Assembly: GCA_934446675.1 (NCBI GenBank) | Contig: CAKSEL010000003.1 | Location: forward strand, 151,318 to 215,317 | Reading direction: 5' to 3' | DNA from: an uncultured Eubacteriales bacterium | Lineage (GTDB): Bacteria > Bacillota > Clostridia > Oscillospirales > CAG-382 | Length of the DNA: 64,000 nt | In this document: positions 6,919 to 60,619 of the stretch, one piece after another | Layout: every line of letters starts with the position of its first letter | Position numbering within the stretch: position 1 is the stretch's first letter | Program-made: the position numbers and the translations under genes | The notes under the pieces: model-generated | What the model was told of the DNA's origin: nothing | The model's input: only the letters and a program-made list of their open reading frames with translations | Database searches by the model: none

Positions 6919-9900
6919 ATGTCCAGAAAAAAGATTTCAATGGACGGAAATACCGCCGCGGCGCACGTTGCATACGCCTTTACGGAGGTTTCCGCTATTT
7001 ACCCTATCACTCCTTCAAGCCCTATGGCAGAGGTGACTGATACCTGGTCCGCTACCGATAAGAATATCTTTGGTGAACCTGCAAGAAATATCTTCGGCGA
7101 ACGCGTCAAGATAATGGAAATGGAGTCCGAGGCAGGCGCTGCCGGTGCAGTACACGGCTCTCTCGCTTCCGGTGCTCTCACAACTACTTATACAGCTTCT
7201 CAGGGCTTGCTTCTCATGATCCCGAATATGTATAAGATCGCCGGTGAGCTTCTTCCTAACGTAATTCACGTTTCGGCTCGCTGCGTTGCATCTCATGCAC
7301 TTAACATTTTCGGCGACCATTCCGATATTTATGCTTGCCGTCAGACAGGCTACGCAATGCTCGCAGAGTCCAACCCTCAGGAAATCATGGATCTCGCAGC
7401 CGTTGCACACCTTTCCACAATCAAGGGCAGAGTTCCGTTCATCAACTTCTTCGACGGTTTCAGAACTTCTCATGAAATTCAGAAGATCGAAGCATGGGAC
7501 TATGCAGACCTTAAAGAAATGGTTGATATGGACGCGGTAAAGGCGTTCAGAGAACGTTCTCTCAATCCCGAAAAGCCCGCGCTCAGAGGCTCGGCTGAAA
7601 ACGGCGATATATTCTTCCAGCACAGAGAAGCCTGCAACAAGTATTATCAGGCACTCCCGGCAATCGTTGAAGAATACATGGATAAGGTCAACAAGAAGAT
7701 CGGTACCGATTATAAGCTCTTTAACTACTACGGCGCACCCGACGCTGACAGAGTTATAATCGCTATGGGCTCCGTATGCGACGTAGCTGAAGAAGTTATC
7801 GACTACATGAATGCAAACGGCGAAAAGGCAGGTCTTGTCAAGGTTCGTCTTTACAGACCTTTCGTATCCGAAAAGCTCATCGAAGCTATTCCGAAGACCG
7901 CAAAGAAGATTGCCGTTCTCGACAGAACAAAGGAACCCGGCTCTCAGGGCGAACCGCTTTATCTCGACGTTGTTACCGCGCTTGCAACACACGGCGTTAA
8001 TGTTAAGGTTGTCGGCGGAAGATACGGTCTCGGTTCAAAGGATACTCCTCCGGCAAGCATCTTTGCAGTATATGAAAACCTCAAGGCGGACGAGCCTAAG
8101 AACAGCTTTACTATCGGCATAGTAGATGATGTAACTCATCTTTCTCTCGAAGAAAAGCCCGCTCCCGATACCGCACCCGAAGGCACAATAAGCTGCAAGT
8201 TCTGGGGACTCGGCGGAGACGGTACCGTCGGTGCAAACAAGAACTCCATCAAGATCATAGGCGACCATACCGATAAGTTTATTCAGGCATACTTCCAGTA
8301 TGACTCCAAGAAGACCGGCGGCGTTACCATTTCTCACCTGAGATTCGGCGATAAGCCCATTAAGTCCTCTTACTATATCACAAAGGCTGACTTTGTAGCC
8401 TGTCATAACCCCTCTTATATCCTCAAGGGTTATAAGATAGTAAACGACGTAAAGCCCGGCGGTAAGTTCCTTCTTAACTGCCAGTGGAATGAAGAAGAGC
8501 TTGATAAGCACCTTCCCAACGCCGTAAAGAGCTACATAGCGAATAACAACATCGAGTTCTATACCGTAAATGCTATCGATAAGGCAGCAGAGATCGGTAT
8601 GGGCAAGAGAACAAATACAATTCTTCAGTCCGCATTCTTTGCACTTGCAAATATCATGCCTATCGATAAGGCTGTTGAGTACATGAAGTACATGGCAAAG
8701 AAGTCGTACCTCAAGAAGGGCGAAGCGGTAGTTGAAATGAACTACAAGGCAATCGACGCCGGCGTTGACGCTATCGTTAAGATAGACGTTCCTGAAAGCT
8801 GGAAGTCGCTTGATCCTGCAAGAGTTGAGCCTGAGATCACCGGAAAGAGACCGGAACTTGTTAAGTTCGTTAAGAACGTAGTTGTTCCCGTTGACGATAT
8901 GCTCGGCGATACTCTCCCTGTTTCCGCATTCTCCGATTACGTAGACGGTACATTCCCGCAGGGTGCTGCCGCATACGAAAAGAGAGGCGTTGCGGTTAAC
9001 GTTCCCGAGTGGATTCCCGAAAACTGCGTACAGTGTAATAACTGTGCATATGTATGTCCGCATGCAACGATCCGTCCGTTCGCTATGGACGAGAAGGAAG
9101 TTGCGGCAGCTCCCGAACAGACCAAGTTCACCGCTAAGATGATAGGCAAGGGCTGCGAAGGATATAAGTTTACCATGGCAATTTCGCCTCTTGACTGTAT
9201 GGGCTGTGGCGTCTGCGTAGACGTTTGCCCGACAAAGCCCGAAAAGAGAGCTTTGAAGATGGTTCCTCAGGAATCTCAGCTCCCGCAGCAGGAAGTATTC
9301 GATTATGCAGTTGCAAATGTAACCAAGAAAGATGTTCCGTTTGCAGATACCTCTGTAAAGGGCAGCCAGTTCAACCAGCCGCTGCTTGAATTCTCCGGTT
9401 CGTGCGCAGGTTGTGCGGAAACTTCTTACGCAAGACTTATCACTCAGCTCTTCGGCGAGAGAATGTACATTTCCAATGCAACCGGTTGTTCGTCTATTTG
9501 GGGCGGCAGCGCACCTGCAACTCCTTACACCGTAAACCGCGACAGCGGCAAGGGTCCGGCATGGGCTAACTCCCTGTTCGAGGATAACGCAGAGCACGGT
9601 CTCGGTATGTACCTCGGTCAGAAGACTATAAGAGAAAGACTTATGGGCAAGGTTGAAGAAATGATGGCTTCCGATAAGGCTTCCGACGCATTCAAGGCTG
9701 CTGCAAAGGCATATCTTGATACCAAGGACGACGGCAAGGCAAATCAGGCTGCAACCGACGCACTTATTCTCGAGCTCGGCAAGGCAGCAGCAGAAGGCTG
9801 TCCTACCGCTAAGGAAGTGCTTGCAGAAAAGCAGTACCTCTCCAAGAAGTCCGTATGGATCTTCGGCGGCGACGGCTGGGCATACGATATCGGCTTTGGC

Positions 9901-10561: not shown

Positions 10562-10770
10562 GAAACGCGCTTTAGGGGTACGCGCTTTCTTTTTAAAAAG
10601 AAAGCTGCAAAGAAAACAGTAGCCCTTAATTTAGATTAAAACTGTGGGATACTCTCTGCCGCCAGCTTATACCGTTCGCAGTCGAACAGCAGGACTGCGA
10701 ACTCAGATATGAGCCGGTGCCGAAGCAAGCTATGGAAATTAAGAATAAAGGGTAATTTAATAAAATTAAG
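10562..10770 (+). repeat. X-type repeat, copy 1 (core about 10577-10738 plus conserved AT-rich tail)
   Basis: Near-identical to inverted copies at 12810-13340 and to the copy at 28072-28242. It contains the palindrome GCTTTCTTTTTAAAAAGAAAGC, the block CTGCCGCCAGCTTATACCG, the hairpin TTCGCAGTC..GACTGCGAA (10675-10701) and CTATGGAAA. No credible ORF. Confidence 0.85.
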
Positions 10771-10807
10771 TTCTGTGCGTTGAATTAAACTTTGCACAGA
10801 GTTTTTT
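10771..10807 (+). terminator. Shared repeat-family hairpin T, copy 1 (intrinsic-terminator-like)
   Basis: TTCTGTGC..GCACAGAG followed by T6. The same hairpin recurs at 12740-12778 (inverted) and 28272-28311. Confidence 0.7.
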
Positions 10808-12261: not shown

Positions 12262-12739
12262 GGGAGCTGAACTTGAGGTTATTTGTTTTTGCCTGTTTTA
12301 GGTGGAAACGGGAAATATTCTTCAAAGTGCGACTTTGTATCTCCGCTTTTCGGAATCGAAAAGACGGGCGCTCTAAAGAGTGTAAACAAAAGATTTTCGC
12401 CGCTCAGACGCCGCAGCGAAAGCGTGGCTACGAGGAGGATTTCGCCTACCGCAACAAAGTACGCCTCCGAAATTTCAAAAAATCCTCGTTTTGCACTGTC
12501 CACAAAACTGTGTTGCGAAATCGCCGCACGACAGGCGCGCGGATGGGGTTGGTTTCTAAGTGAAATTTGTTTATCTCAGCTTTATCTCTTACGCCATGTC
12601 ACGTTGCGGTCTGCGTAAACTATGTTTCAAGTGCAAAAGTGCAATTTTTATGCGTTATTACGCAGTCAACAGGACTTACTTTTCCGACCAGCTCGCTATC
12701 GCGAGATGACTACGGCTGAATGTTACTTGTATATTTAGT
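12262..12739 (-). ncRNA. A-type large structured ORF-free element, copy 1 (candidate ncRNA; strand is a weak inference)
   Basis: Homologous to the inverted copy at 28312-28922, with conserved blocks separated by variable inserts. Helices are preserved with compensatory changes, and reading frames are not conserved between the copies. See findings. Confidence 0.4.
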
Positions 12740-12778
12740 AAAAAACTCTGTGCGAAATTTAATCTAACGCACAGAGTT
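12740..12778 (-). terminator. Shared repeat-family hairpin T, copy 2
   Basis: AACTCTGTGCG (12744-12754) / CGCACAGAGTT (12768-12778). The A6 run at 12740-12745 becomes T6 on the minus strand, downstream of the AraC gene and the X copies. Confidence 0.7.
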
Positions 12779-12780
12779 AT

Positions 12781-13343
12781 CTTTTTATTAAATTACCTTT
12801 TATTCTTGGTTTCCATAGCTTGCTTTGGCACTTGTTTAGATTTGAGTCAGCCTCCTGCCTTTTGGTGGCTGACGGTACAAGCTGGCGGCAGGGAGTACCC
12901 CACAACTTTTTCTAATTTAGGGGCTATTGTTTTCTTTGCAGCTTTCTTTTTAGAAAGAAAGCGCGTACTTTCAAAAGTTATCTTTTGTACTATGTTTCCA
13001 TAGCTTGCTTCGGCATCTGCTTAGATTTGAGTTCGCAGTCCTGCTGTTCGACTGCGAACGGTACAAGCTGGCGGCAGGGAGTACCCCACAACTTTTTCTA
13101 ATTTAGGGGCTATTGTTTTCTTTGCAGCTTTCTTTTTAGAAAGAAAGCGCGTACTTTCAAAAGTTATCTTTTGTACTATGTTTCCATAGCTTGCTTCGGC
13201 ATCTGCTTAGATTTGAGTTCGCAGTCCTGCTGTTCGACTGCGAACGGTACAAGCTGTCGGCAGAGAATATCCCACAGCTTTTTTCTAAATTAAGGGCTAT
13301 TGTTTTCTTTGCAGCTTTCTTTTTAAAAAGAAAGCGCGTATTC
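12781..13343 (-). repeat. Three tandem X-type repeats (12810-12968, 12995-13154, 13181-13340; period about 186 bp) plus conserved tail
   Basis: Direct reading shows that units 2 and 3 share their first half and units 1 and 2 share their second half. The spacer TTTCAAAAGTTATCTTTTGTACTATG is identical between units. Confidence 0.9.
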
Positions 13344-14171
13344 CTAACGCGTTTCTTCTGCGTTTTTGCCGAAATGTTTTTTGTAGGAATTGCAGAAGTA
13401 GGAGGGAGAGCAGAAACCGCAGAGCTCAGATATCTGGGCACAGGAAAGATCGGAGGAGGAGAGGAGGCTTTGAGCTTTGGAGAGTCTGTAATCAAGGAGA
13501 TATTCGTGAAAGCTTTTGCCGACCTGTTCTTTAAAAATTCTGCCGAGATATTTTTCATTGATAAAATAAGTGCGTGCAATGAGGGAGAGCGTAAGCGGCT
13601 TTGAATAATCCGACGCAATACAGTCCAATGCAATACGAACCGCCCAGTGCAGAGAGTTTCTCCGGAACGCCGGAGTTTTTGCATGGCTTTTTATAAAATT
13701 TTCGATAAGCTCGGCAATAATGCGGCACTGGCTGTCGGTGTACGGCATTGATAGATCTTTCATCACCGAGTACATGGCGTCAAAGTCGCTTTTTGCAATA
13801 TCGGCGGCTTTGCGCAGCTTTTCATGGCTCTCGTCCGGATTTTTCACAAGATTTCCTATGTAGATTATGCATAATAATTCATCGCCGGAAAAGACCGGAC
13901 GGCATATCTCGTAAAGACCGAATGCGCATAACCCTGCAAATTCGCGCCCCGAATGGCGTGCATATTCGTTGCACACCGTCTTGCACCTCATGCACATTTC
14001 AAAGCCTTTGCCAGTTGACTTCGCCATGTCGCAGAAAATTTTGCTGTGTACGCGGTATTCCTCCGGCAGACGCAGCGGTTCCTGCGAGATAATTCCCGAA
14101 ACATCGGCAACAGAAATGTGTAAATGCGTGTTTTGGCAAAATAACCCGATTAAATCCTTTAACTGCGTCAT
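13344..14171 (-). CDS. AraC-family transcriptional regulator with PocR-like N-terminal sensor domain
   Basis: C-terminal HTH_AraC (LTLSLIARTYFINEKYLGRIFKEQVGKSFHEYLLDYRLSKAQSLL..ISELCGFCSPSYFCNSYKKHFG). Cys-rich N-terminal domain (FCDMAKSTGKGFEMCMRCKTVCNEYA), as in PocR. Confidence 0.8.
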   Translation of the reverse strand: MTQLKDLIGLFCQNTHLHISVADVSGIISQEPLRLPEEYRVHSKIFCDMAKSTGKGFEMCMRCKTVCNEYARHSGREFAGLCAFGLYEICRPVFSGDELLCIIYIGNLVKNPDESHEKLRKAADIAKSDFDAMYSVMKDLSMPYTDSQCRIIAELIENFIKSHAKTPAFRRNSLHWAVRIALDCIASDYSKPLTLSLIARTYFINEKYLGRIFKEQVGKSFHEYLLDYRLSKAQSLLSSSDLSCAQISELCGFCSPSYFCNSYKKHFGKNAEETR

Positions 14172-16232: not shown

Positions 16233-19200
16233 ATGAAAAGGCTGTTTTCTGCTTTATCCGCGGTATTTGCATTGATTGCGCTTTCGGCTGCGGTCTGTGC
16301 TGCCGATGTTCTCCCGGATAACGGCGGAGTTTATAATATAGAATACCCCGGCGAGAGCTTCGGAGAGTATACGCTGCTTGTGATAAAGGGCGTTTACGGC
16401 GAAGATCAGCTTGAAACGCTGCTGTCGAAGTATGCGGATTCCGACGTAATGTACCGTGAATATGCCGTAGCAGACGAAAACGGACTCGTGAGATTTGATA
16501 ACATTATTCCGAGATCGTATGCAGATTCTACGGCGATAATAGGCGGCACGGGACTTGAAAAGCCGTGCATTGCGGCGATACTGCGTCCGGACGGCGCGCT
16601 TGATGCCGAAACGCTTAAATTTTCCGAGCTTGAAGACGTTTATACCGTAAGCGGAAGCCTCGGAGAGGATATTGAAATAAACCTCGAGGCGCTTACATAT
16701 GACTCTTTCGGATATCCTAGCCTTGAACAGCCGCAGACAGAATATTCCGTTTCGGGCGTCGGCGATAACAGCTCGGCGTATCTCTCGGCGGATAAAAAGA
16801 CGCTTGTCATAAACAGATACGCAAAAGATATGACGTTTGAAGTTTCCGCAAAGGCGGCGGAGCTTTCGGACAGCGTGCAAGTAAACGTAAAGAGAGCACA
16901 GAGAGTTCCTTGCGCAATAAAGGCGTATACCGACGAAGGGCTTACAAACGCTGTTTCGTCGATTACGGTACAAGGAGCCGACGGCGTGTTTTCCCCGGCA
17001 GAGCTGTATTTTGATTTTACCGATAACTTCGGCGATAAAATAGATAGCAGCGCCGTTGTCGAATGTGACGGAAAGGTTGTAACAGGAAATTTTGTGCCGG
17101 AAAAGGCAGGAACATATATACTCACGGCTTTTTCTGCGGATAACAGAAACGTTTTTGTAAATATAACGGTCGAGGCGCTGGAAAGACCGGATTATACCGG
17201 CGGCGCGCTTGAGCTTTATGAAAAAATAGCAGAGGCTAAAGAAGTTCTCGGCGGCAAAAATATAAGAATATTCGTAAGCGAAGAGAGCGGAAACGATATA
17301 TACCCCGGTACGCGCTGGACTACGGAAAGTGAGTTTAACAAGCTTTCCGCGCAGACGGATTCGGCTGAGGATACTCTGAAACGCTTTTCAAACGGTGAGA
17401 TTGCCGACAGTGTTGCAAAAGCTGCGGCGCGTAATCTGAATACAGCGCTGACCAAGTTCAATTCTTTGCTGAAGGACGGCAAGCGCATAGACGCGGATTC
17501 AATTACACTGAGCATTACCGAGGTTACTCTGGCATACGGAAAGAGCGCAACTCCGAAAGTAACCCTGTTGCCGTCAAAGAATACCGAAAAGATCACCTGG
17601 TCAAGCTCCGACGATTCGGTTGCATCGGTTTCGCAATCCGGCGTCATTAAAGCAACCGGTAAGGGCACTGCCGTTATAACGGCGCAGACAAGAAACGGTA
17701 TAAAGGCGTTCTGCACGGTTTATGCGGTGCGCCCCATAACAAAGCTCGTAACCTCCGAAACAAAGATAAGCCTCATAGTCGGCGCAAACGACTATCAGCT
17801 CTCGTACACGGCGTTCCCCGAAGATAATAACGATACCGTAAGATGGTACAGCTCAAACGAAAAGGTAGCAACGGTGTCTTATGAAGGTATGGTTCACGCG
17901 GTATCGGACGGAAGCGCAAAGATCTATGTCGAAAGTTCGGGCAAAAAGAAAGCGTATACGACCGTAAGCGTGGGACTCGGCGCGGATAAGGTTTCGTTTG
18001 TATCTGCACCGCAGACTGTTGCCGTCGGCAAGAATATAACGCTAAAGGCGTCAGCCTCAAGAATTGACGGCAGGCGTCCCATTGACAGCAAGGCTACGAT
18101 TACGCAGATAAGCGGCGAGGAATACGGTTATTACGCACCCAACGGCAAGCTGTACGGCTTAAAGCCCGGCAGGGTCGTAATGATGGCAGAGGCTGTAACG
18201 TCTCTCGATAAAGTAAGCACGGTAATTGAAATAGATATAGTTATCCCGGCGTCCGCAGTAAAGATGTCCGAGACAAAGATTTCCATGGTTGCCGGAGGAG
18301 ATGATTTTGAACTTTCCGCGGTAATTTTTCCCGAAAACAGCACCGAGAGCCTGACATGGCAAAGCTCAAATCCGAATGTTGCCGAAGTTTCCGAAGACGG
18401 CGTTGTAACCGCGCTTTCAAAGGGTACGGCAAAGATCACGGCAAGGACGGGCAGCGGAAAAACCGCAACCTGTACGGTTACTGTCGGACTCGGCGCGGAT
18501 ATGGTGGAATTTACAAGCAAAATAACCTCTGCCGCAGTCGGAAAAACGCTTGCGCTCAAGGCTGCCGCTTCGAGAGATGATAAGCAAAAGCCGGTAAGCA
18601 CGGCGGTAAGATATGAGATAATAAGCGGAAACGAATTTGCCGAAATAGACAAAAACGGAAAGCTCAAAGCTCTTGCGGTGGGAACAGTGACAGTGCGCGC
18701 ATATGCCGAGGCAAGCATAAACGGAGCATATGACGATATTGTTATAAATATTGTTGTGCCGGTAACGTCGCTTAAATTTGCTGTGTCAAAGCAGACCGCG
18801 GTTGTCGGGGACAGTCCGTTTAACCTTTATGAAATTCTCACGGTACAGCCGTTTGACAATACCGATATACTTACCTGGTCAAGCTCAAATGAAAATGTTG
18901 CGGACGTTGACGAATACGGAAATGTAACCGCGCTTTCAAAGGGCACGGCAAAAATTACCGTAATGAGCGGTTCGGGAAAGAGAGCGGTATGCACGTTTAC
19001 TGTCGGACTGGGTGCCGATTCGGTTAAAATAACAAAGCCGTCGTCGCTGTCGTTAGCAGCAGGAAAAACGCTTAAGCTTAAAGCGTCGGCTGTAAGGGAA
19101 GATTCGCAGAAACCGGTTTCGTCGGATGTAATCTGGGAAAGCTCCGATGAGTCGATAGCGACGATTGACGCGCGCGGCAAGGTTACGGCGTCGCACAATT

Positions 19201-20048
19201 ACGGCAGCGTCACGTTCACGGCGTTCGCAAAGTGCGGCACGGGTTCCGACAGCATAACGATAGATGTTGTCCCCGAACTTTACAGCCTTAAAGCGCAGAG
19301 CACCGTTGTAAGCATGGAAGAGGGACAGAGCGTTGAAATCCTGCCGATGTTGACTGTCACAGCGCGCGACGGTGAAATTATTGACGTACAAACCTATTGC
19401 GAGGTTACGTATAAGAGTACCTCTGCCGCAATAGTTTCGGTATCCTCCGACGGTATTGCCGAGGGTATCAAAAAGGGCAGAACTACGGTAAAAGTCACCG
19501 TAAAGTGCGCGTCGGTCACAAAGAGCATTACAATTACATTTAATATAACCGAACCGTCTGCTGACAGCTTCGGCGAAGAGAAAATCCCGGATAACGAAGA
19601 TAATTCGGACAACGAAATTCCCGATAATGCGGATAATTTGGACAACTCCGATAATGCAGAAATACCTGAGGATATAACAAAACCCGAAATCCCCGAAAAC
19701 GGCGAAAATTCCGGCAGTGACGGCGAAAATACGCTGCCCGAAACGTCCGATAATGACACCGCTGACGGTACGGACGGTGCCGAAAACGCACAAGATGCGG
19801 ACAGTAACGATAAAACCGGCAATGCGGATAATCCGGAGGGCACGGGAAATACGGAAACCGCGGACAATGAGAAAGATTACGAAAATTCCGGAGACGTGAA
19901 AGACCGGCAGGGCGAAAATGCCGGAAGTACGGAAAGTTCCGCAAACCCCGAAAACGCAGAAAGCTACGAAACTGTGGAAAACACGGATTTTACGGACAGT
20001 TCCGTTCTGCCGGAAAGCGCGGCTGAATTTGCACTGAGCACGTGTTAA
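16233..20048 (+). CDS. Large secreted protein with multiple bacterial Ig-like (Big_2) domains and acidic low-complexity C-terminus
   Basis: Signal peptide present. At least five repeats of the Big_2 signature (ITWSSSDDSVASVSQSGVIKATGKGTAVITA; RWYSSNEKVATVSYEGMVHAVSDGSAKIYV; TWQSSNPNVAEVSEDGVVTALSKGTAKITA; and others). The last ~160 aa are rich in D/N/E/G/T/S. Confidence 0.85.
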   Translation: MKRLFSALSAVFALIALSAAVCAADVLPDNGGVYNIEYPGESFGEYTLLVIKGVYGEDQLETLLSKYADSDVMYREYAVADENGLVRFDNIIPRSYADSTAIIGGTGLEKPCIAAILRPDGALDAETLKFSELEDVYTVSGSLGEDIEINLEALTYDSFGYPSLEQPQTEYSVSGVGDNSSAYLSADKKTLVINRYAKDMTFEVSAKAAELSDSVQVNVKRAQRVPCAIKAYTDEGLTNAVSSITVQGADGVFSPAELYFDFTDNFGDKIDSSAVVECDGKVVTGNFVPEKAGTYILTAFSADNRNVFVNITVEALERPDYTGGALELYEKIAEAKEVLGGKNIRIFVSEESGNDIYPGTRWTTESEFNKLSAQTDSAEDTLKRFSNGEIADSVAKAAARNLNTALTKFNSLLKDGKRIDADSITLSITEVTLAYGKSATPKVTLLPSKNTEKITWSSSDDSVASVSQSGVIKATGKGTAVITAQTRNGIKAFCTVYAVRPITKLVTSETKISLIVGANDYQLSYTAFPEDNNDTVRWYSSNEKVATVSYEGMVHAVSDGSAKIYVESSGKKKAYTTVSVGLGADKVSFVSAPQTVAVGKNITLKASASRIDGRRPIDSKATITQISGEEYGYYAPNGKLYGLKPGRVVMMAEAVTSLDKVSTVIEIDIVIPASAVKMSETKISMVAGGDDFELSAVIFPENSTESLTWQSSNPNVAEVSEDGVVTALSKGTAKITARTGSGKTATCTVTVGLGADMVEFTSKITSAAVGKTLALKAAASRDDKQKPVSTAVRYEIISGNEFAEIDKNGKLKALAVGTVTVRAYAEASINGAYDDIVINIVVPVTSLKFAVSKQTAVVGDSPFNLYEILTVQPFDNTDILTWSSSNENVADVDEYGNVTALSKGTAKITVMSGSGKRAVCTFTVGLGADSVKITKPSSLSLAAGKTLKLKASAVREDSQKPVSSDVIWESSDESIATIDARGKVTASHNYGSVTFTAFAKCGTGSDSITIDVVPELYSLKAQSTVVSMEEGQSVEILPMLTVTARDGEIIDVQTYCEVTYKSTSAAIVSVSSDGIAEGIKKGRTTVKVTVKCASVTKSITITFNITEPSADSFGEEKIPDNEDNSDNEIPDNADNLDNSDNAEIPEDITKPEIPENGENSGSDGENTLPETSDNDTADGTDGAENAQDADSNDKTGNADNPEGTGNTETADNEKDYENSGDVKDRQGENAGSTESSANPENAESYETVENTDFTDSSVLPESAAEFALSTC

Positions 20049-27174: not shown

Positions 27175-28053
27175 ATGAAAAAGCTTCTCACAATCGCTCT
27201 CGCAGCACTTCTTTCGGTATCTGTATTTACCGGCTGCCAGAACAAGACCACAACAGACGACAAAAACAACGACAGCAATGTTCAGGACAATGTTAACGGT
27301 GCAGACAATTCCACCGATGACAAAAAGCTTGAGACCGTAACCGTTGCGGCAAGCAGCGCTCCTCATGCAGAGATCCTCGAACAGATTAAGGGTATACTTA
27401 AGGACGAGGGTTATGACCTCCAGATAAAGGTAATGGACGACTACGTAACTCCTAACACTGCTGTTGAAGGCGGAGACGTTGACGCTAACTACTTCCAGCA
27501 TCAGCCTTACCTCGATCAGTTCAATGACGAAAACGGCACTCATATAGTTTCCGTTGCAAAAGTTCACTATGAGCCTTTCGGAATCTATGCAGGCACTTCT
27601 TCAAGCCTTGACCTCGCAGACGGCGCAAAGGTTGCAGTTCCTAACGACGCTACCAACGAAGCACGCGCACTCCAGCTCCTCGCTGCAAACGGACTTATCA
27701 CCCTTAAGGACGGCGCAGGTCTTACCGCTACTACAAAGGATATAACCGAGAACCCCAAGAACCTCAATATCGTTGAAATGGAAGCAGCTCTTCTTCCCTC
27801 CGTTCTTTCCGAAGTTGACGTAGCTGTTATTAACGGTAACTACGCTATAAGCGCAGGTCTTAAGGTTTCCGAAGCTATCGCAACCGAAGATCCCGATTCC
27901 GAGGCTGCTCAGACCTTCGCTAATATCCTTGCCGTTAAGGAAGGTAATGAAAACGAAGATAAAATCGTTGCTCTTAAAAACGCTCTCCTCAGCGATACCG
28001 TTAAGAACTTCATCGCTGATAACTATGACGGCGCTGTTGTCGCTATATTCTAA
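27175..28053 (+). CDS. metQ: Methionine-binding lipoprotein (MetQ/NlpA family)
   Basis: Lipobox VFTGC. NlpA-family blocks YFQHQPYLDQFN, HYEPFGIY and AVPNDATNEARAL. Confidence 0.9.
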   Translation: MKKLLTIALAALLSVSVFTGCQNKTTTDDKNNDSNVQDNVNGADNSTDDKKLETVTVAASSAPHAEILEQIKGILKDEGYDLQIKVMDDYVTPNTAVEGGDVDANYFQHQPYLDQFNDENGTHIVSVAKVHYEPFGIYAGTSSSLDLADGAKVAVPNDATNEARALQLLAANGLITLKDGAGLTATTKDITENPKNLNIVEMEAALLPSVLSEVDVAVINGNYAISAGLKVSEAIATEDPDSEAAQTFANILAVKEGNENEDKIVALKNALLSDTVKNFIADNYDGAVVAIF

Positions 28054-28271
28054 GAGTACGAAAGAGTACGAGGGTACGCAGAAGAACGCGCTTTCTTTTT
28101 AAAAAGAAAGCTGCAAAGAAAACAATAGCCCCTAATTCAGAAAAAATTACGGGATGCTCACTGCCGCCAGCTTGTACCGTCAGCCACCAAAAGGCAGGCG
28201 GCTGACTCAAATCTAAGCCGGTGCGTGAGTAAACTATGGAAACCGCGTACTAAGTATAATTTTATAAAATT
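28054..28271 (+). repeat. X-type repeat, copy 5 (core about 28072-28242 plus tail)
   Basis: Same architecture as 10562-10770. The internal hairpin is the alternative version, TCAGCC..GGCTGA (28180-28205). It starts immediately after the metQ stop. Confidence 0.85.
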
Positions 28272-28311
28272 AAACTCTGTGCATTGTATAAAACTTTGCA
28301 CAGAGTTTTTT
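28272..28311 (+). terminator. Shared repeat-family hairpin T, copy 3
   Basis: AAACTCTGTGCA / TGCACAGAG followed by T6. Confidence 0.7.
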
Positions 28312-28922
28312 CTATACATAAAAGTAACATTCAGCCGTAGTCATCTCGCGTAAGCGAGCTGGTCGGAAAAGTAAGTCCTGTTGACTGTAAAATAACAATA
28401 AAAATTAACACTTGTGTACCTAAAACCAAGTTTACGCAGACCGCAACGTGACATGGTAAAAAGGTTAAATCGTGTTGCTCAATCAATTACTTAGAAACCA
28501 ACCCCATCCGCGCGCTTGTCGCGCGGCGATTTTGCCGTAAGTTATGTGGACGAACCGTAGTAGCAGGGCGGTTATGCTTGTAAGAATAATAAAGGTGAGA
28601 AAAGTTGTACTTAGGGCAAAATCCTCCACGTAGCCATGCTTTCGCGGCGGCGTTTGAGCCGCGAAAATCTTTTGTCACTTTTTCGATTCCGAAAAGTGAG
28701 TGAATAGGGTTGCACATGGAAGTGGATAACCTGTTTTCGCCCAAACAAAGCGAAAATCAGCTAAACGCAAGAGCAGTTCGCTTTCGCGGCGGCGATTGAG
28801 CCGCGAACGGCTTTTCGACCACTTTTAGCCGCCGAAAAGTGCAAATACAAAGTTGCACTTTGAAGAATGTAACCCGTTTCCGCCCAAATAATCCAAAATC
28901 CGCTGTTCTCTCAGCTCCGCGC
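28312..28922 (+). ncRNA. A-type large structured ORF-free element, copy 2 (with internal module duplication)
   Basis: Reverse complement of 12262-12739, plus an extra ~140-nt module. The landmarks TTCGCGGCGGCG(T/A)TTGAGCCGCGAA (28641-28665, 28783-28807) and GTTT(T/C)CGCCCAAA (28733-28745, 28876-28888) each occur twice. Confidence 0.4.
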
Positions 28923-28990
28923 CTGTATACCCGCGGTATTTTCTGTAAATACTAATTCCAAATCATGCATTGCCGAAAGGAAGTATTTAC

Positions 28991-31900
28991 ATGAGATCCA
29001 CGTCGGAAATCAAAACACTCGATGAAATTTTCGGGAATATAACTGCCGTAAAAATCTCATCGTGCAGAATTCTCGGAAGAAAACTCAAAGCCGCGTCGCG
29101 TGTATTAAAGAGCGAATTCGGTAAGGTAAAGCAGTTTTCAAAGCATGACGGTTCGCTGCCGTGCGCATATGAATGGCTTGCGGATAATTACTATGTGCTT
29201 GATAAAAACGTAAAAGAGCTTTCGGCGCAGATATCTCATTTTAAGAAAATTCCCGTGTCGGACTGCGGACTTCCCGTGTATTTTGAATTGCTTTCGGCAT
29301 ACTATGAAACTCTCGCGGACGGATTTTCCGATGAAAACTTTTCGGAGTTTGTGAAATTCGCCTGCCAAAATAAAAATGTTGCTCCCGATATGCGTGATAT
29401 GTATGCTTTTCCGGCGTTTGCAAAGTGCGCGGTTATATGCTTTGCTGCAAAAATGTGGCGTGAGTTCTCGGCTGATCCGGATAGTATAAATATGGCGCAT
29501 ATTATGGAAAACGCGGTGAAATCGCTGTCAAACCCGGAGATTTTCGATATGGAGGAGCTTTTTTCCTTTCACCCGGCACAAAAAATAATGTCCTGCGACC
29601 CGTCCGGAGCTTTTGATAAAATGAGCGAGGATACAAAGAAATATTATAGATTAAGACTTTGCGATCTGTCCCGAAAAAACGGACAAAGCGAACGTCAGAC
29701 AGCGTCGCGTATTCTCGATAAGGCAGCCGCGGCGGAAAATTTAAGAGAGCGTCACGTCGGCGCATATCTTGAGGATAATAAAAGCTTTGCCGTGCCGTAT
29801 TACGGCGCGCTTTTCTGCATTGTCGCGGCGGCACTGCTTGCGATGACGGCTTTTGTTTCGCCTGTTTGCCTGCTTCTTGCTTTGCCGGTGTGGGAAACCG
29901 TAAAATTTCTGCTTGACGTTGCTTTTTCGCGCTTTGTAAATCCCGAGCCTCTTTTCAGAATGGACATTTCGGAAATTCCGGACGGATTCGGCGCACTTAC
30001 CGTCATAACAACGCTGCTTTCGGGAAATAACGCGGATAAAAAAATATTTGAAAGACTTGAAAGCCTGTATTTTTCAAACGGCGGTAAAAACGCATATTTC
30101 GGACTTCTCGCCGACCTTCCCGACAGTAAAACGCAAAAGTCCGGAAATGATGAAAAGTTGCTTGATAACGCAAAAAAGCAGATCCAAAGACTTAATGAAA
30201 AATACGGCGGCGTTTTCTTTTTGTTTACAAGACAGCGCGCCTATTCAAAGTCCGAAAAGGCATATATTGCACCCGAACGCAAAAGGGGAGCCGTCTGCGC
30301 ACTTTCGGAATACCTCTGCGGCAAGGGCGATAAATTTGATGAGAACTCATTAAAGCCGTCAAAAGAGCTGTGTAAGAATATAAAATATGTCGTTACTCTC
30401 GACGCTGATACCGAAATGCCCGTCGGCGCACTTGAGCTGCTTTGCGGAGCAATGCTTCACCCGCTGAATAAGCCCGTGCTTAACAGTGACAAAACGGCAG
30501 TGGTAAAAGGACACGCAATAATCCAGCCTGCCGTAAGAACAACGGCGACCGACGCGTCGAAGAACCTTTTTACGTCGGTAATGTGCGGACCTGGAGGTCG
30601 TGAAAGCTACTCGAACTTTTCGGGCGAGCTTAATATGACGCTGTTTAAAAATTCGGGATTTTGCGGAAAGGGAATATTCGATAAAGAGGTGTTTTATGAG
30701 CTTACCCACGGCAAAAACGCCTTTAAAACAAACGCGGTGCTGAGCCATGACGCACCCGAAGGAGCAAGGCTGAACTGCGCTGCGGATACGGAAGCCGTGT
30801 TCACGGACGGATTCCCCAAAAACGAGCTTTCTTACTTCAAACGCGAGCACAGATGGATAAGAGGAGATTTTCAAAATCTCGGCTTTGCCGCAAAATACGT
30901 AAAAAACGCGTCGGGAGAGAAAGTTGAGAACGGGATTTCTGCGCTTTATAAGTACAGAATTTTCGATAATGTCAGACGTGAGCTTACTCCAGTCTTTGCG
31001 GTAATTGCCGTTGTATGCACGGTTTTCTGCGATGATTTCACAAGCGCGTTTCTCGGCGGAATAACGGCGCTGTATGTCTTTATGCCGTTTCTTGCCGACT
31101 TGATTTGTACGCTTGTTCATATAAAGAGCGGAGCAAAAGCCGCAGCAGCAAGGTTTTATTCTTTCGGCGTCGTGCCGTCGCTGTTTCAAAATTTGAGACG
31201 CTGCGCTCTTGATATGTCAATGCTTGCAAAATACGCTCTTGTCTGCCTTGACGCGTTTTTCAGAAGCTGTTACCGAATGTTTTTCTCGCATAAAAGGCTT
31301 CTCGAATGGACGACGGCGGCTCAGAGCGACGCGTCAAGCTCCGACGGAATAGGAGGATACGTCTTTAAAAATCTGTTTTCAAGCATAATAGGCGTTTTCG
31401 TGTTTGTATTTTCGGGCGACGGCTTTGCAAGGCTTTTCGGACTGTCGTGGTTTTTTCTTCCGGCTGTCGCGTATTTTTGCGCCGAGTGTAAAAATAACAC
31501 GCTTTCAGATAACGCGCCCGATAATGACGAGCTGAAAACCGTTAATGAGTACGCAAAAGATATATGGAGCTTTTTTGAAAACACGGTAACGGAGGAGGAA
31601 AATTATCTTCCGCCCGATAATATTCAGCTTTTTCCCGAAATGCGCACAGCTCACAGAACCTCGCCCACAAATATAGGACTGTATCTTGTATGCGCCGTGG
31701 TTGCGAGAAAATTCGGCTTTATAAATTCGCACGAGCTTTGCGCAAGACTTGAAAATTCGCTCTTTACTCTTGAAAAAATGCAGAAATTCAAGGGACATCT
31801 TTATAACTGGTACGATACAAAAACTCTCGGCGTTCTCGAACCCGTGTACGTTTCAAGCGTTGACAGCGGAAATTTTCTTGCGTGCCTTATAACGGCGTCA

Positions 31901-34900
31901 AACGGTGCGGCGGAATATAAAAACGAGTGCGCGGAGCTTGAAAGTATCTCCGAAAAACTGTATGCGCTGTATGAAAATACGGATCTTGAGGTAATTTACA
32001 ATAAAAAGCGCGGACTTTTCACTCTCGGACTGTCTTTTGAAAACGGACGGGCAAAGTCCGGAGATAACTGCTATGACCTGTATATGAGCGAGGCGAGAAC
32101 TCTCAGCTATATTGCCTGCGCAAAGCGCGGCGTGCCGCCTAAACACTGGAAAAGACTTTCGAGAATGCCCGTTAAGTTTTACGGACATACGGGACTTGTG
32201 TCGTGGTCTGGCACGGCGTTTGAATATTTTATGCCGGCGCTGTTTCTGCCGTATATGCCCTGTACTCTTGAATATGAAGCACTGCGGCTTGCATATGACG
32301 CGCAAAAGTCAAGAAGTGCCGAAACCGACTTCGGAAAGATATTCGGCATATCCGAAAGCGCATATTTTGCCTTTGATTCTCAGATGAACTATGCATACCG
32401 CGCCTTCGGCGTTCCGGTGCTGGGACTCGGACGCGGACTTGAAAAGGATCTTGTAATATCTCCGTACTCTTCGTTTCTTATGATGAGCGTGAATTTGAGC
32501 GGCAGCCTTAAAAACCTTGCCGTCATGAAAAAGTACGGCTTGTATGGCAGATACGGCTTTTATGAGGCGTGCGATTTTACACCCGGACGCGCCTCGGCAA
32601 AGGGCAGCATTGTTAAAAGCTATATGGCGCACCATATGGGAATGAGCTTTTGCGCATTGGCAAACGCGGCGTTTTGCGGCGAAGTACGCAGACTGTTTAC
32701 GGAGGATAAGGCTATGGAAAGCGCAAAAACCCTGCTTGACGAGAGAATACCCGTCGGAATTGAAGTAAAGAAGTATTCAGGTATATATGAAAAGACTGAT
32801 AAGCCGGACGCCGCGCCTATCTGCGTTCAGAGCCGTGTTTCAACCGGCGCAGATCCGGAAAATCCCGTGTTCGGCGCACTGTCCGACGGCAGAATTTCGG
32901 TTCTCGGCGCAGATAACGGATATGTGCGTATCTCGCTCGGCGGTAAAATGATAAACCTTGCCTCAAACGAAAAATACGGCATACAGAAAAGCGTTATGTG
33001 CTTTGCAAAGCTCGGAAATACGTTTTTAAGCTCTTGTCCCGGCATAAATGACAATAAAAATGAGAGCCGCAGTTTTGAGATAAGTCCGGAAAAGCTGTCA
33101 TATAACGTAAAGTCTGACGGAAAATATAATTTTACCTCGTCATTTACCGCCGAAAAAAACGTATCCGAAACCGTAAGAATTAAAATGACGCTTGAACGGG
33201 ATAAAAACGGAAATGACAGAGCAGAAAAGCCGAAGCGCGTAAAATTCGCACTGTATTTCGAGCCTGTTCTTGCAAGTATTCTGAACTACGAGTCGCACCC
33301 TGCATTTTCGGGGCTTTTCGTCGAAGCCGCGCTTGATGAAGAAACGGGAATACTGTGCTTTCGCAGACGTCCGAGAGAGGCTCACGAAAAGGAACTGTAT
33401 CTTGCCGCGGCGCCGTCAGACGGAGAAAAGTTTGATTTCGGCATAAATAAGATACGCATTTTCGGCTATCCCGTGACGGGTGAAAGCTTCAAGAAAATAT
33501 TTGATAAAAGACCCGATAACAGAGAGGGCGCGTGCATAGATCCTGCGTGCCTGATTGCCGCAGAGCGCGGTTTTGACGGACAAAACAACAAGGCGCAGTT
33601 TGAAATAATACTTTCCGTTTCCGACAGCCGCGAAAAGGCGATCTCGGGAATAACCGCCGCGAGAGAAAAAAGCTTTGAAAAGGCGTGTGCGGAGTTAAAA
33701 AAGACCTCCCTTGAACTGTATGCCGCGTCGGGTTATGCGCCGGACGGAGAAGTCGGAGAGTCCGAAGAAGAAAAAGAGCTTTGCGCGCTTGTTTATCCCG
33801 AAAAGAGCGAACCCGGCACCGAACTTGAGAAAAACGGCATGGACGCGCTGTGGAAATACGGAATATCGGGCGATTATCCGCTTATATGCGTATATGCAGA
33901 CAATCCGCTTGACGAGGATAAGGCGATAAGGTATGTAAAGGCGTTTGCTCTGCTTAAATATAAAGGCTTTTGCGCGGATCTTGCGCTTTTGTACCGCGAG
34001 CATGAAAAATACCGTGCAGACGGAGAAAATCTTGCCGACGATATAATTTCAAAAAGCGGCGTTTCGGGACTGATCGGCGCAAAAAACGGCGGAATATTCA
34101 AGGTTGACCTGTCTAAAAGCTCAGACGGCGGAGAAAAACTCATATTCCGCGCGGCGCTTGTGTATCCGCCTCTCGCAAAACCCGATGAGAGCGCGTTTTT
34201 TGCAGGAAATTATGATATTGTAACGGATATTCAGGGGAAGGAAAGCGCAACCGACGGGGAAATATTCTTTAATACTGCGGTCGGATATTTTGACAAAAAC
34301 TACGATTTTACCGTCGATAAGACAAGAAATATAACCCGTCCCATGTCGCACGTTCTGTCTGGACGGCACCTCTCGACGGTCGTCACCCACAATTCTCTCG
34401 GATATACTTTCTGTACAAACGCCGCCGAAAGGCGAATAACTCCCTTTTATAACGACGAATGTTCCTTTTCGACGGGAGAGCATATTTATATAAGCGACGG
34501 ACAAAAGCTCTATGACCTTGCCGCGGTTTCGCACAGCGTAAAGTACGGTACGGGATATGCAGAGTATACGGCGCGTATATGCGAAAAAGAGGTAAGACTT
34601 AAAGTATACGTTCCCGAAAAGCTGCCGATTAAAATTTATGAGGCTGACGTTCCGGACTCGCTTTCGGCAATGCTCTTGGTAAAGCCGGTAATGGCAAGAT
34701 TTGCCTTTTCAAACTCCGACTGTACGTTTAATATAGGCGCGGGCGCGGTAAGGTTCGGGAACAGCTTTTCGCAGAATTTCCCGTATACGGGATTTGCGTT
34801 CGGAGCAGGCTTTGACGAGTCGGGAAATGTGTCGGAGGGCGCGGTAAAAATATTCAGAAGCGGCAGATTTTCGGGCTGCGCCGCAGTCATGTTTGAAAAT

Positions 34901-45986: not shown

Positions 45987-46829
45987 TCAGCCTGCGAAGA
46001 ACTGAGACCAGTAGAGAGTCGAGCCGTTAGAGTGGCAGCCCACGCCGATCTTGGTAAAGGACGAATTGAGAATGTTTGCCCTGTGGCCCTCGGAATTCAT
46101 CCACGCGTTTACAACCTCGCTCGGGGACGACTGTCCCATGGCAATGTTCTCGCCTGCCGAAGAATAGGAATATCCTATTTCGTCAAGTGCGGTAAAGCAG
46201 CTTGAGCCATTGGGTCTTGTATGAGAGAAGCTCTGAGCCGTCTCTTTTGCTCTTACGGCGGCGGCGCGGTTAAGCTCCGAATCCATGGTAAGCGATGCAA
46301 GACCGTACTTGTTTCTCTCCTTGTTGACAAGATCAACTACCTGCTTTACGTATGCGTAGTTTTCAACGTTTCCCGAATCCGCGCCGTTATCGGTGCTGCC
46401 GTTTCCGGAGTTGTCCGGAGTTTCCGGAACATCGGGAGTTTCGGGTGTGCCGGGTGTTTCAGGTTCGTCGGGCGTATCGGGAGTGTCCGGAGTTTCCGGC
46501 TTGTCGGAGCTGTCAGGAGTGTCTGACGGAGTGCAGGAGCCTGAGAAAATATTGTCGGAAAGACCGTATTTTTCCTTGAGCCAGTTTTCAAGCACCGATA
46601 TGTTCTGTCCGGTTATTTCAACCTTTTTGCCGGAGAATATGTCCGAGATAAGGTCGCCGGAAATTTCCGTGCAGGTCAGATCCCCGCATTTTTCCGCGAG
46701 ATCTTCAAGAACCTCACAGTTTTGATTTTTCACACAGTCGGAGATGTCGTCGTTTGCGCACGCCGCATATGCACTTACAGGAAGCGCTGCCAGCAATGCC
46801 GCAAAAATGATAGCGATTTGCTTTTTCAT
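45987..46829 (-). CDS. Secreted CAP/SCP (YkwD-like) domain protein with Pro/Thr/Asp-rich linker
   Basis: The track ORF 45987-46910 is trimmed to the ATG at 46829 (RBS GGAAGGGGG; signal peptide MKKQIAIIFAALLAALPVSAYA). The CAP domain reads VNKERNKYGL..AAVRAKE..HTRPNG..GENIAMG..WMNSEGHRANIL. Confidence 0.8.
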   Translation of the reverse strand: MKKQIAIIFAALLAALPVSAYAACANDDISDCVKNQNCEVLEDLAEKCGDLTCTEISGDLISDIFSGKKVEITGQNISVLENWLKEKYGLSDNIFSGSCTPSDTPDSSDKPETPDTPDTPDEPETPGTPETPDVPETPDNSGNGSTDNGADSGNVENYAYVKQVVDLVNKERNKYGLASLTMDSELNRAAAVRAKETAQSFSHTRPNGSSCFTALDEIGYSYSSAGENIAMGQSSPSEVVNAWMNSEGHRANILNSSFTKIGVGCHSNGSTLYWSQFFAG

Positions 46830-47049
46830 AATTATTTCCCCCTTCCGGAAATAATTGTACCTCGCCAAACGCTCAATTTCAATGCAAAGGATCTTCCATA
46901 CTTTCCGCATATATGTATATGTGCCGTTATATGGAAAATAAACATAAAAAAACCGCCCCGAATTATGGAAATCCGGGACGTAAACGCATTTTTTTGCAGT
47001 TTTTCGTACTGTTTGCCGTAAATTTACATCGACGGCAAATTAAGGATTA

Positions 47050-52743: not shown

Positions 52744-53103
52744 AAACCAATAATCAATTTGCGATGAAGGGAATAAAGCAGCGCAGACAGTATGTCTGCA
52801 GAGAAACGGCGGTCGGTGAAAAGCCGTTGCATACGCGCTGCCTCGTCAACCCCGAGCTATCTGTCCGAAGGCTTTTGTCTTTTGTGCTTTCCGTAAGTGC
52901 AGGAAGGCGCGTTTATCAAAAAGAGCTGTGTAGATACAGACGGAGAGTCACCGTTATATGACAAACCCGGTTGTCGGATCGGGTGAGCGGCCGTTCGGTA
53001 ATACGTTCGGCAAAAAGAGTGGTACCGCAGAGAATTTTTCAGTCTTTGTCTCTATTGTTTTGAGAGATGAGGGCTGTTTTTTTATACCCTCTCGGTTGTT
53101 TTT
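52744..53103 (+). promoter_or_regulatory. T-box riboswitch leader of ilvBNCD
   Basis: AGAGA bulge and GGTGAAAA distal loop (about 52797-52821). Stem GCAGCGC/GCGCTGC. Specifier-loop candidates CUC/GUC at 52842-52847. T-box sequence AAAAAGAGTGGTACCGCAG (about 53012-53030). Terminator GAGAGATGAGGG..CCCTCTC plus a T-run (53062-53103). Confidence 0.85.
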
Positions 53104-59220: not shown

Positions 59221-59410
59221 TTGACAAATATATAAAACTGTGGTATCATACTCACGTTGACCTGAGAAAACAGGCAGTGCAATGCACTCTAACGGTTAAT
59301 ACCGCCTGTCGAGGAAGATGTAATTTAAAGAATATCGTAAAATATTCTCCCGTACATTGTCCTTTTTCTATGGTCGAAAAAAGGGCATTTTTTATTTGGG
59401 AGGTGAACAT
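59221..59410 (+). promoter_or_regulatory. rplJ promoter and ~160-nt structured leader (position of the ribosomal protein L10 leader)
   Basis: TTGACA (59221-59226), 17 nt, TATCAT (59244-59249), then a long 5' UTR before rplJ. The L10-leader consensus was not verified by eye. Confidence 0.5.
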
Positions 59411-60547: not shown

Positions 60548-60576
60548 TTGACATAAAATGCAACCCGTAGTATAAT
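60548..60576 (+). promoter_or_regulatory. Consensus sigmaA promoter of the COG0523 pair
   Basis: TTGACA (60548-60553), 17 nt, TATAAT (60571-60576). No convincing Zur-type palindrome was recognised nearby. Confidence 0.6.
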
Positions 60577-60619
60577 GCTATTCAGGGAAATTATTTTTAT
60601 TAAACGGAGATGTTTAAAC

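Follow-up and report, generated by a model that had tools for sequence, protein, structure and literature searches.

The closest described counterparts of the element considered here are interspersed repeats of other bacteria. BOX, RUP and SPRITE are species-restricted, dormant and structured, are co-transcribed with their neighbours and form spurious open reading frames (ORFs), and SPRITE is terminator-like and enriched at the 3' ends of genes (Croucher et al. 2011; PMC3049150). The BIMEs, or REP elements, of enterobacteria and the NIMEs of Neisseria are mosaic clusters of palindromic units and linkers in extragenic spacers (PMC3184786). The bcr repeats of the Bacillus cereus group are summarised as 100-400 nt long, with bcr4-6 associated with rearrangements and with compensatory changes that keep RNA or DNA structure in bcr1 (Kristoffersen et al. 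2011; PMC3184786). The element described here, E, occurs twice in a 64,000-nt stretch of contig CAKSEL010000003.1 (the window, meaning the whole stretch analysed) from an uncultured Clostridia species of the human gut. It is probably the largest module set of a family of species-restricted composite (mosaic) interspersed repeats of the BOX/SPRITE/BIME/NIME kind. The family has not been described before, the kind of repeat is already known, and E is probably not a new large functional RNA.

E is built, in this order, of a leader motif and the modules M, AB and C, and is accompanied by a hairpin (H) and a unit of 186 nt (U). By analogy, the family matches the published description of BOX, RUP and SPRITE feature for feature (Croucher et al. 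2011). As in pneumococcal BOX, the order of the sub-modules is fixed while the number of internal modules varies, hairpin structure is extensive, copies are intergenic and often lie between convergent genes, a single species carries them while its relatives are nearly free of them, recent insertions are few, spurious ORFs arise, and transcription would, by the same analogy, take place within untranslated regions (UTRs). H resembles a Rho-independent terminator, as SPRITE does. However, E and BOX have no sequence similarity, E is larger (350-570 nt) and has more distinct modules, and the host of BOX is a streptococcus rather than an uncultured gut member of the Clostridia. The ends of BOX are inverted repeats like those of ISSpn2, whereas the ends of E are direct repeats with no known partner insertion sequence (IS).

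With BIMEs and NIMEs, E shares mosaic palindromic clusters, a bias to spacers at gene 3' ends and a tie, presumed in the case of E, to mRNA 3'-end stability, termination and recombination. REP units measure only 20-40 nt and occur in hundreds of copies, whereas the modules of E are longer and more heterogeneous, and the GTAG/CGTC-type heads of REP were not seen in E by eye. The bcr repeats, compared by description, are likewise Firmicute interspersed repeats with structure kept and a link to rearrangement. By the same source, bcr1 has 5-bp target duplications and strain-variable positions, whereas the positions of E are conserved among strains.

Modular Architecture of the E Family

The family was mapped with iterated nhmmer profiles of five modules over 22 related loci (~290 kb) and the window, extra contigs being obtained with the spurious ORFs of E as search handles (L001-L034 denote the loci or contigs fetched for comparison with the window). 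Besides H hairpins, 53 M, 42 AB, 43 C and 20 U units were found. The order leader-M-AB-C-(H)-(U or E(rc)), where rc stands for reverse complement, holds in 43/43 E copies, while the numbers of modules vary (M 1-2, leader 1-3 in tandem, U 1-3). E is 354-571 nt long, and the layouts of its composites are E-H-U, E-H-E(rc), E-U and U-H. The G+C content is 46.1% in E and 44.1% in U, against 46.5% in the window.

Four types of 3' end can be distinguished. In type I (~15 copies) H directly follows C. In type II (~14 copies) a ~45-nt spacer resembling a truncated start of M comes first, followed by H in the opposite orientation with a clean TTTTTT. Type III (6 copies) has no H and runs into U, and type IV (L025 and L019) has a different, canonical terminator in the same place. 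Convergent E->H<-E pairs always combine type I with type II. At the other end, the stretch of ~20 nt that precedes M is similar to the final ~20 nt of E (motif GARTGTTRCTTWTnTTTGG), and leaders match the tail motif in 20/36 cases, vs 3.8 in shuffles. The start of E thus resembles its end in the direct sense, so that E is bracketed by direct, not inverted, repeats (imperfect, ~20 nt).

Copies are numerous and dispersed. In sample ERZ835980, six contigs carry an exact 20-mer from C that is present in only 18/43 C modules, which points to at least ~15 copies per genome, and seven E copies lie in one 20-kb stretch of L024. The gene neighbours of the 43 copies are unrelated to one another. Small genes are found between some copies, namely a 169-aa ORF with no known function (L011 405-914) and a 55-aa protein (L025 1791-1958); the latter has a convergent E copy on either side, and the one at L025 1410-1769 carries a terminator of its own in place of H.

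An earlier note on the window, made from its sequence alone, had described two ORF-free copies in inverted orientation that share near-identical blocks in the same order, with unrelated inserts between them. Sequence reading, alignment and an inverted-repeat search all confirm these copies at the positions given; the blocks are exact against the sequence, as are the helices placed at 12438-12445 / 12515-12522, 12396-12420 and 12524-12542. The ends assigned to the element were too narrow: both copies are real, but the repeat similarity runs past 12739 into the hairpin (12740-12786 / 28269-28310) and then into U.

Copy 1 (12276..12739, + strand), delimited by the nhmmer module map, by alignment to copy 2 and by the leader and tail motifs, consists of the leader (~12276-12302), M (12303-12443), the mid stem region, AB (12516-12601), C (12663-12735) and the tail. 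It is followed by H (12740..12786, no strand), recognised from folding energy and membership of the repeat family, and by an array of three tandem 186-nt U units on the - strand (12790..13340; units 12790-12968, 12974-13154 and 13160-13340), a strand that is sense to the upstream AraC-type gene (13344-14171, minus). Copy 2 (28315..28905, - strand) has a leader, M twice (28779-28883 and 28619-28740), AB (28449-28534) and C (28315-28387), and it is longer than copy 1 because the ~140-nt 5' module is present there in two tandem copies. Its H (28269..28310, no strand) was placed by the module map and folding, and its U (28085..28263, + strand) is sense to the upstream NlpA-lipoprotein gene (27175-28053). 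The window repeat search gave four inverted matches between the copies: 12581-12744 / 28306-28469 (164 nt, 83% identity), 12515-12561 / 28489-28535 (47 nt, 94%), 12386-12446 / 28615-28675 (61 nt, 90%) and 12287-12363 / 28822-28898 (77 nt, 78%). A solitary U with H (10578..10806, + strand; U 10578-10758, H 10772-10806) has the orientation of the PFOR gene upstream of it and is located between the terminator of PFOR and the promoter of MATE; E is lacking here except for a ~25-nt remnant of its tail.

Hairpins, Covariation and Strand

Whole E copies fold better than shuffled sequences on both strands (z = -2.9 to -4.5). In M, the outer three pairs of the hairpin CTTTTCG-loop-CGAAAAG each take three standard pair types, 97.3% of cells are paired (89.6% in shuffles, 40-57% in slid controls), and covariation is 0.170 vs 0.047 in shuffles, with 0/500 shuffles reaching the value of M. 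In U, a stem alternates between GTTCGCAGT/ACTGCGAAC, GTCAGCC/GGCTGAC and GTCCGCAGT/ACTGCGGAC; 98.8% of cells are paired and covariation is 0.295 vs 0.131 in the control. The mid stem, either GATTTCGC/GCGAAATC or GATTTTGCC/GGCAAAATC, is consistent in 19/19 copies, a change that counts as one event because the two forms are linked haplotypes with different inserts. C contains two nested stems in three allelic forms (CAGC-CTCGC..GCGAG..GCTG; CCAG-CTTGCC..GGCAAG..TTGG; hybrids), which were described by hand, as two stem alleles differ in register and defeat RNAalifold on MAFFT alignments.

Compensatory change does keep several of the hairpins, and covariation exceeds both the shuffled and the slid controls. 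Other proposed helices fared less well. The CTGCGTAA/TTACGCAG helix is unconserved in many other copies, where its 5' arm is invariant and its 3' arm drifts, and two supposed compensatory changes in copy 1, TTCGCCGC/GCAGCGAA and CCGCACG/CGCGCGG, are in fact mismatches. A long-range pairing of GGGGYUGG with CCGACC/CUGCCC, suggested by RNAalifold, was rejected, as its variants do not covary.

Wobble pairs, mismatch type and folding energy give no consistent answer as to the transcribed strand. Wobble (G-U) cells are rare in M (3/455 in the RNAalifold run, 4/480 in a stricter count) and absent from AB. On the M-to-C strand, G-U pairs occur in the outer stem of C (CCGG/TTGG, CGGC/GCTG) and at M columns 46/61 (U-G); on the opposite strand, they arise from C-A at M columns 119/133 in 6-7 copies, which is the case the earlier note had relied on, and from A-C in H. 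Single hairpin mismatches, counted blind, are G-T 9 times and A-C 6 times, and the antisense strand folds slightly better in 27/36 copies, with nearly equal median free energies (-121 vs -116 kcal/mol). The suggestion of a minus-strand RNA at 12.3 kb is thus not sustained, the pair signals pointing both ways. Since the strand tests disagree, the constraint appears symmetric, with palindromic DNA or transcripts of both strands as its possible targets. Transcripts of both strands are plausible, given that E occurs in both orientations with respect to local transcription.

The same hairpins could belong to a multicopy family of independently transcribed large structured non-coding RNAs, running from the leader to H or another terminator and acting in trans or as a scaffold. 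Such RNAs would account for the compensatory changes that keep the hairpins, for near-invariant unpaired blocks between hypervariable inserts, for the non-coding character of E, for the terminator-like hairpin after almost every copy (in two cases a non-homologous one) and for those G-U pairs that fit the M-to-C strand, in the outer stem of C and at M columns 46/61. They accord poorly with the rarity of G-U pairs, a trait not typical of structured RNAs, with M columns 119/133 and H, which favour the opposite strand, and with the unconserved CTGCGTAA/TTACGCAG helix. Taken with the gene context, history and database searches described below, this makes RNA genes of this sort an unlikely explanation. 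A related proposal holds that E, perhaps with U, represents a new class of structured RNA that is 0.4-0.6 kb long, multicopy and transcribed from many loci, and whose blocks bind a lineage-specific partner; GGAUGGGGUUGGUUUCUAAG, CCAUGUCACGUUGCGGUCUGCGUAAAC, CAGUCAACAGGAC and GAUGACUACGGCUGAAUGUUAC, near-invariant and unpaired, would be the candidate binding sites. The partner, a protein or an RNA, might for example belong to a mobile element that uses RNA as guide or scaffold, and the hairpins would be conserved for that role and not only as palindromic DNA. We regard this as improbable.

Gene Context and the Hairpin H

U is sense to the adjoining gene that ends beside it at 9/9 independent judgeable loci (two-sided binomial p ~0.004), and H follows the sense-oriented U, with a clean U-tract. 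The six tandem-gene spacers always read gene -> U(rc) -> [H(rc)] -> E(rc) -> gene, the bracketed H(rc) being variably present, and spacers between convergent genes read gene -> E -> H <- U(rc) <- gene, or E -> H <- E. The gene at the 5' end of E is co-directional in ~60% of cases and divergent in ~40%. In all six tandem-gene spacers, pgk-tpi included, E is antisense to local transcription, and a conserved -35/-10 was not found at the leader across copies; both findings argue against independently transcribed RNA genes. A sigma-70 promoter in the leader (TTGCTT ... GATAAT) was considered and rejected, as the position of its '-10' is unconserved across copies.

H has a stem of 10-12 bp, a loop of 13-15 nt and a folding energy of -17 to -21 kcal/mol, with an A-run upstream and a T-run downstream. 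The hairpin at 12740..12786 has a 13-nt loop; its folding energy is -19.2 kcal/mol on one strand and -17.7 kcal/mol on the other (z about -5 to -6). UUUUUU directly follows the stem on the U-side strand, and the E-side strand carries a U-rich tail. H therefore has what defines an intrinsic (Rho-independent) terminator, a stable GC-containing stem followed by a U-tract; a simple terminator scanner (loop 3-8) missed it because its loop of 13-15 nt is longer than usual. From its predicted fold, H looks like a bidirectional intrinsic terminator common to E and the U array. In both strains sampled (L024, L016), the pgk-tpi spacer holds a composite of the type without H. These two genes are normally co-transcribed, so that H is missing exactly where read-through is needed, which we read as a sign that H terminates.

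E copy 2 abuts the 5' end of a gene for a 2556-aa protein with GH94 and glucoamylase domains (window 28970-36640). The promoter of this gene must for that reason lie within or directly beside the repeat, and no consensus promoter was found at this junction. The protein itself might, at a guess, be a cyclic beta-1,2-glucan synthase or phosphorylase-like.

Distribution and History

Exact-word scans with two invariant blocks, over 596 Gb of genomes and the JGI/ENA metagenomes, found E only in the metagenome-assembled genome (MAG) 'uncultured Clostridiales bacterium UMGS1387' and in a few ENA human-gut metagenome assemblies. Six further matches were set aside: L001 and L005 are paralogous coding regions, as judged from sequence, and L004, L006, L015 and L020 are chance matches limited to the 19-20-nt search word. 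Genes that repeat-bearing loci have in common with the window or with one another are 87-99% identical, and all such loci belong to one species-level clade.

PFOR relatives at 81-86% identity come from MAGs that bear the labels Clostridia, Ruminococcaceae or Oscillospiraceae. Two sister species, whose PFOR is 93% and 88% identical, yielded no E, U or H module to nhmmer in 63 kb. The sister genome GCA_965335315.1 keeps the gene order fba-asnA-birA-pgk-tpi, with a pgk-tpi spacer of 22 nt (L034 11300-11321) vs 794 nt of U+E in L024 and L016 (L024 15194-15987, L016 6899-7571), the likely ribosome-binding site of tpi, AAGAAGG, being kept. Its fba-asnA spacer is 124 nt, vs 1254 nt of E-H-E in L024, and L016 has the same convergent E pair; the longest spacer in the 21-kb sister locus is <=349 nt. 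Because the sister spacers are short and free of repeats, the repeats are insertions that postdate the split of the species. This absence of E from orthologous sites counts against an RNA gene, as does the fact that E evolves faster than its flanking genes (80-87% vs 93-95% identity).

Within the clade, the positions of the repeats are conserved among strains and their module content is not. The spacer of copy 1 holds E-H-U-U-U in the window, E-H-E(rc)-halfU in L023 and E-H-U in L007, and copy 2 differs entirely from its orthologue L003 in the 5' part. Paralogous E copies within one sample are at most 86-88% identical (median 82% in aligned columns); since no copies exceed 88%, there is no sign of recent spread. 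Synteny ends at repeats in three comparisons (window/L007, L009/L013 and window/L030). The MATE gene and E copy 1 (2.4 kb) lie between inverted U units (10568-10758 / 13161-13351, 88% identical over 191 nt), which makes this segment a possible candidate substrate for inversion. Its orientation in L023 is the same as in the window, and the left flank in L007 consists of wholly different genes. An inversion between the U copies was rejected for L007: the gene on the left of E there encodes a 443-aa protein that is not related to MATE, which makes the difference a synteny break.

In the distant relatives L032 and L033 only a faint M-like nhmmer match was found (E = 0.002). L032 (PFOR 86% identical) carries small hairpin repeats of its own that are different from E, for example GTCATTTTGTCGG...CCGACAAAATGAC, at 7846-8090, 8331-8401, 14094-14149, 4920-4954/17833-17867 and 2719-2753/20166-20200, as well as a 113-nt repeat present twice at 132-nt spacing and the faint M-like segment CACTTTTC...GAAAAGTGAC. 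Strings of hairpin repeats may be a general habit of this lineage.

In the history we propose, the composites would have entered intergenic spacers in one past burst, after the split from the sister species, inserted by a function acting in trans, and would now be dormant. Slippage, unequal recombination and gene conversion between copies would later have reshaped them, and the repeats would serve as breakpoints of rearrangement. H would stop transcription arriving from both sides. U, and often E, would be transcribed only within the 3' or 5' UTRs of their neighbours, where the hairpins may affect RNA stability. The near-perfect Watson-Crick palindromes would fit a constraint exerted on DNA, or on the transcripts from both strands, better than one exerted on a single dedicated RNA.

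Many dispersed, extragenic and modular copies, extensive predicted structure and a narrow range with empty sites in sister species are what characterises composite repeats, and all are found here. Several observations nevertheless weigh against this reading. Neither the window nor the gene calls of the fetched loci revealed a mobilising enzyme, the terminal repeats of E are direct and not inverted, and no clear target-site duplication is visible where filled and empty junctions can be compared (pgk-tpi and fba-asnA, whose flanks are ~10-15% diverged). No presence/absence polymorphism of the repeats was seen inside the species in the strains compared. Two E copies (L025 and L019) end in a different, canonical terminator at the position of H, a replacement that suggests selection on 'E plus terminator' itself. 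Finally, blocks such as CAGTCAACAGGAC or GCCGCGCGACAGGCGCGCGGAT are near-invariant among copies that differ by ~18% and alternate with hypervariable inserts, a pattern typical of functional RNAs or protein-binding sites.

Known RNAs, Proteins and Mobile Elements

Large ornate RNAs occur in single or few copies, are conserved across genera and often have conserved gene neighbours. E is like OLE, GOLLD, ROOL, raiA and HEARO in its size range, in being non-coding and in its many capped hairpins and conserved blocks with variable inserts, a likeness on which the earlier note had based its candidate large structured RNA. E is not a low-copy large RNA gene of the OLE/GOLLD/ROOL class; it belongs to a modular repeat that is present in dozens of diverged copies and restricted to one clade. 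It also lacks a conserved gene context, is absent from sister species and has no Rfam match, its G-U pairs are few, and neither strand stands out.

The earlier note had matched E to no known RNA class, and this was upheld. At the gathering score, Rfam 15 (4227 families) gave 0 matches in the whole 64-kb window. At E<=10, both window copies gave only chance matches, on the H hairpin, and no HEARO, OLE, GOLLD, ROOL or raiA; one type I/II pair of E copies searched at E<=1 likewise gave only chance matches on H. The window does contain a T-box leader upstream of ilvB (52755-53056), which scores 66 bits where the gathering score is 93, and also an L10 leader ahead of rplJ (59243-59400; 36 bits vs 44, cut by the search range). 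The default scan reports no RNA in the 64 kb because both leaders score below their gathering scores, and the negative result for E is meaningful because the permissive search recovers them.

A decayed protein-coding gene, or a source of small proteins, is hardly credible as an explanation of E. ORFs of 85-130 codons overlap both window copies, and gene callers have annotated such ORFs in metagenomes. The copies differ in frame, their indels have lengths not divisible by three, and some modules are duplicated or missing. The 111-codon ORF over copy 1 found 21 'proteins' among 5.8 billion database sequences, with no Pfam domain and patchy coverage (22-99%), and the supposed homologues whose contigs were fetched lie, in 7/7 cases, on further copies of the E repeat. 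Coding by E was rejected on the ORF search and the frame comparison, in agreement with the earlier statement that no reading frame is common to both copies.

E, H and U might instead be non-autonomous derivatives of a mobile element, of the MITE (miniature inverted-repeat transposable element), PATE or REPIN-like sort. A transposase encoded at another site in the genome, such as an IS200/IS605 Y1 enzyme or RAYT, would then recognise the hairpins as DNA, and E might also have a guide-RNA (omega-RNA-like) role. Insertion relative to sister species, palindromes that are near-perfect at the DNA level, poor in wobble pairs and without strand signal, repeats at synteny breakpoints and the close tie to a terminator-like hairpin, a known target type of some elements, all agree with this. 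The enzymes and ends that it calls for were not encountered. Transposase, integrase and reverse transcriptase are all absent from the window; neither it nor the called genes of L021-L034 include a transposase, TnpB or IscB, and no tnpB or iscB lies beside any locus whose genes were examined. Nothing resembling a RAYT gene was seen in the window or the fragments of relatives, no whole-genome search having been made. There are no terminal inverted repeats, only E-H-E(rc) pairs being inverted, as whole arms, and there is no clear target duplication and no AT-richness such as MITEs have. The window copies match neither HEARO nor any other Rfam family, even at E<=10, no copies exceed 88% identity, which speaks against recent activity, and E, with 350-570 nt and eight or more distinct hairpins, is far larger than the ends of REP or PATE. 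A mobile-element derivation thus has a small chance of being correct. Phage and plasmid collections searched with blastn in distant mode held nothing similar to E, and one word scan of viral contigs gave no match. Homology to an IS or prophage, named in the earlier note as an outcome that would speak against its RNA interpretation, was literally not found in these searches, but the evidence for insertion relative to sister species is in the same spirit. That interpretation is, overall, partly supported.

Other Features of the Window

The window is ordinary chromosome, with genes for PFOR, a MATE pump, an AraC/PocR regulator, a methionine ABC transporter, the giant GH94 protein, ilv genes, rplJL and SpoIIP. 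A 1271-aa surface protein (16233-20048) has six Big_2 domains, and DNA repeats spaced by ~519 nt correspond to these domains. A 9-nt periodic repeat in eight overlapping copies (46412-46521) lies in the gene of a CAP-domain protein (45987-46910, minus) and is probably a low-complexity linker. A run rich in His, Asp and Glu with 9-nt periodicity (61226-61497; CAT/CAC/GAT/GAA codons), inside a CobW-family GTPase gene (60575-61819), presumably encodes a metal-binding insert, as in CobW proteins of the zinc-chaperone type.

Implications

Recognising E as part of a composite repeat family, as seems probable, removes a false lead, E not being a new RNA of the OLE/GOLLD class. Where it is present, the family fills long spacers, interrupts even the pgk-tpi operon, would supply shared bidirectional terminators and marks rearrangements. 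Repeat families of this kind break assemblies and mislead gene callers, E repeats being already annotated as proteins in public data, and they can mimic the signals of structured RNAs in covariation screens. They are also raw material for regulatory evolution. Given the direct-repeat ends of E, its invariant blocks beside hypervariable hairpins and the strictness with which U is oriented, the family may still have a genuine molecular function.

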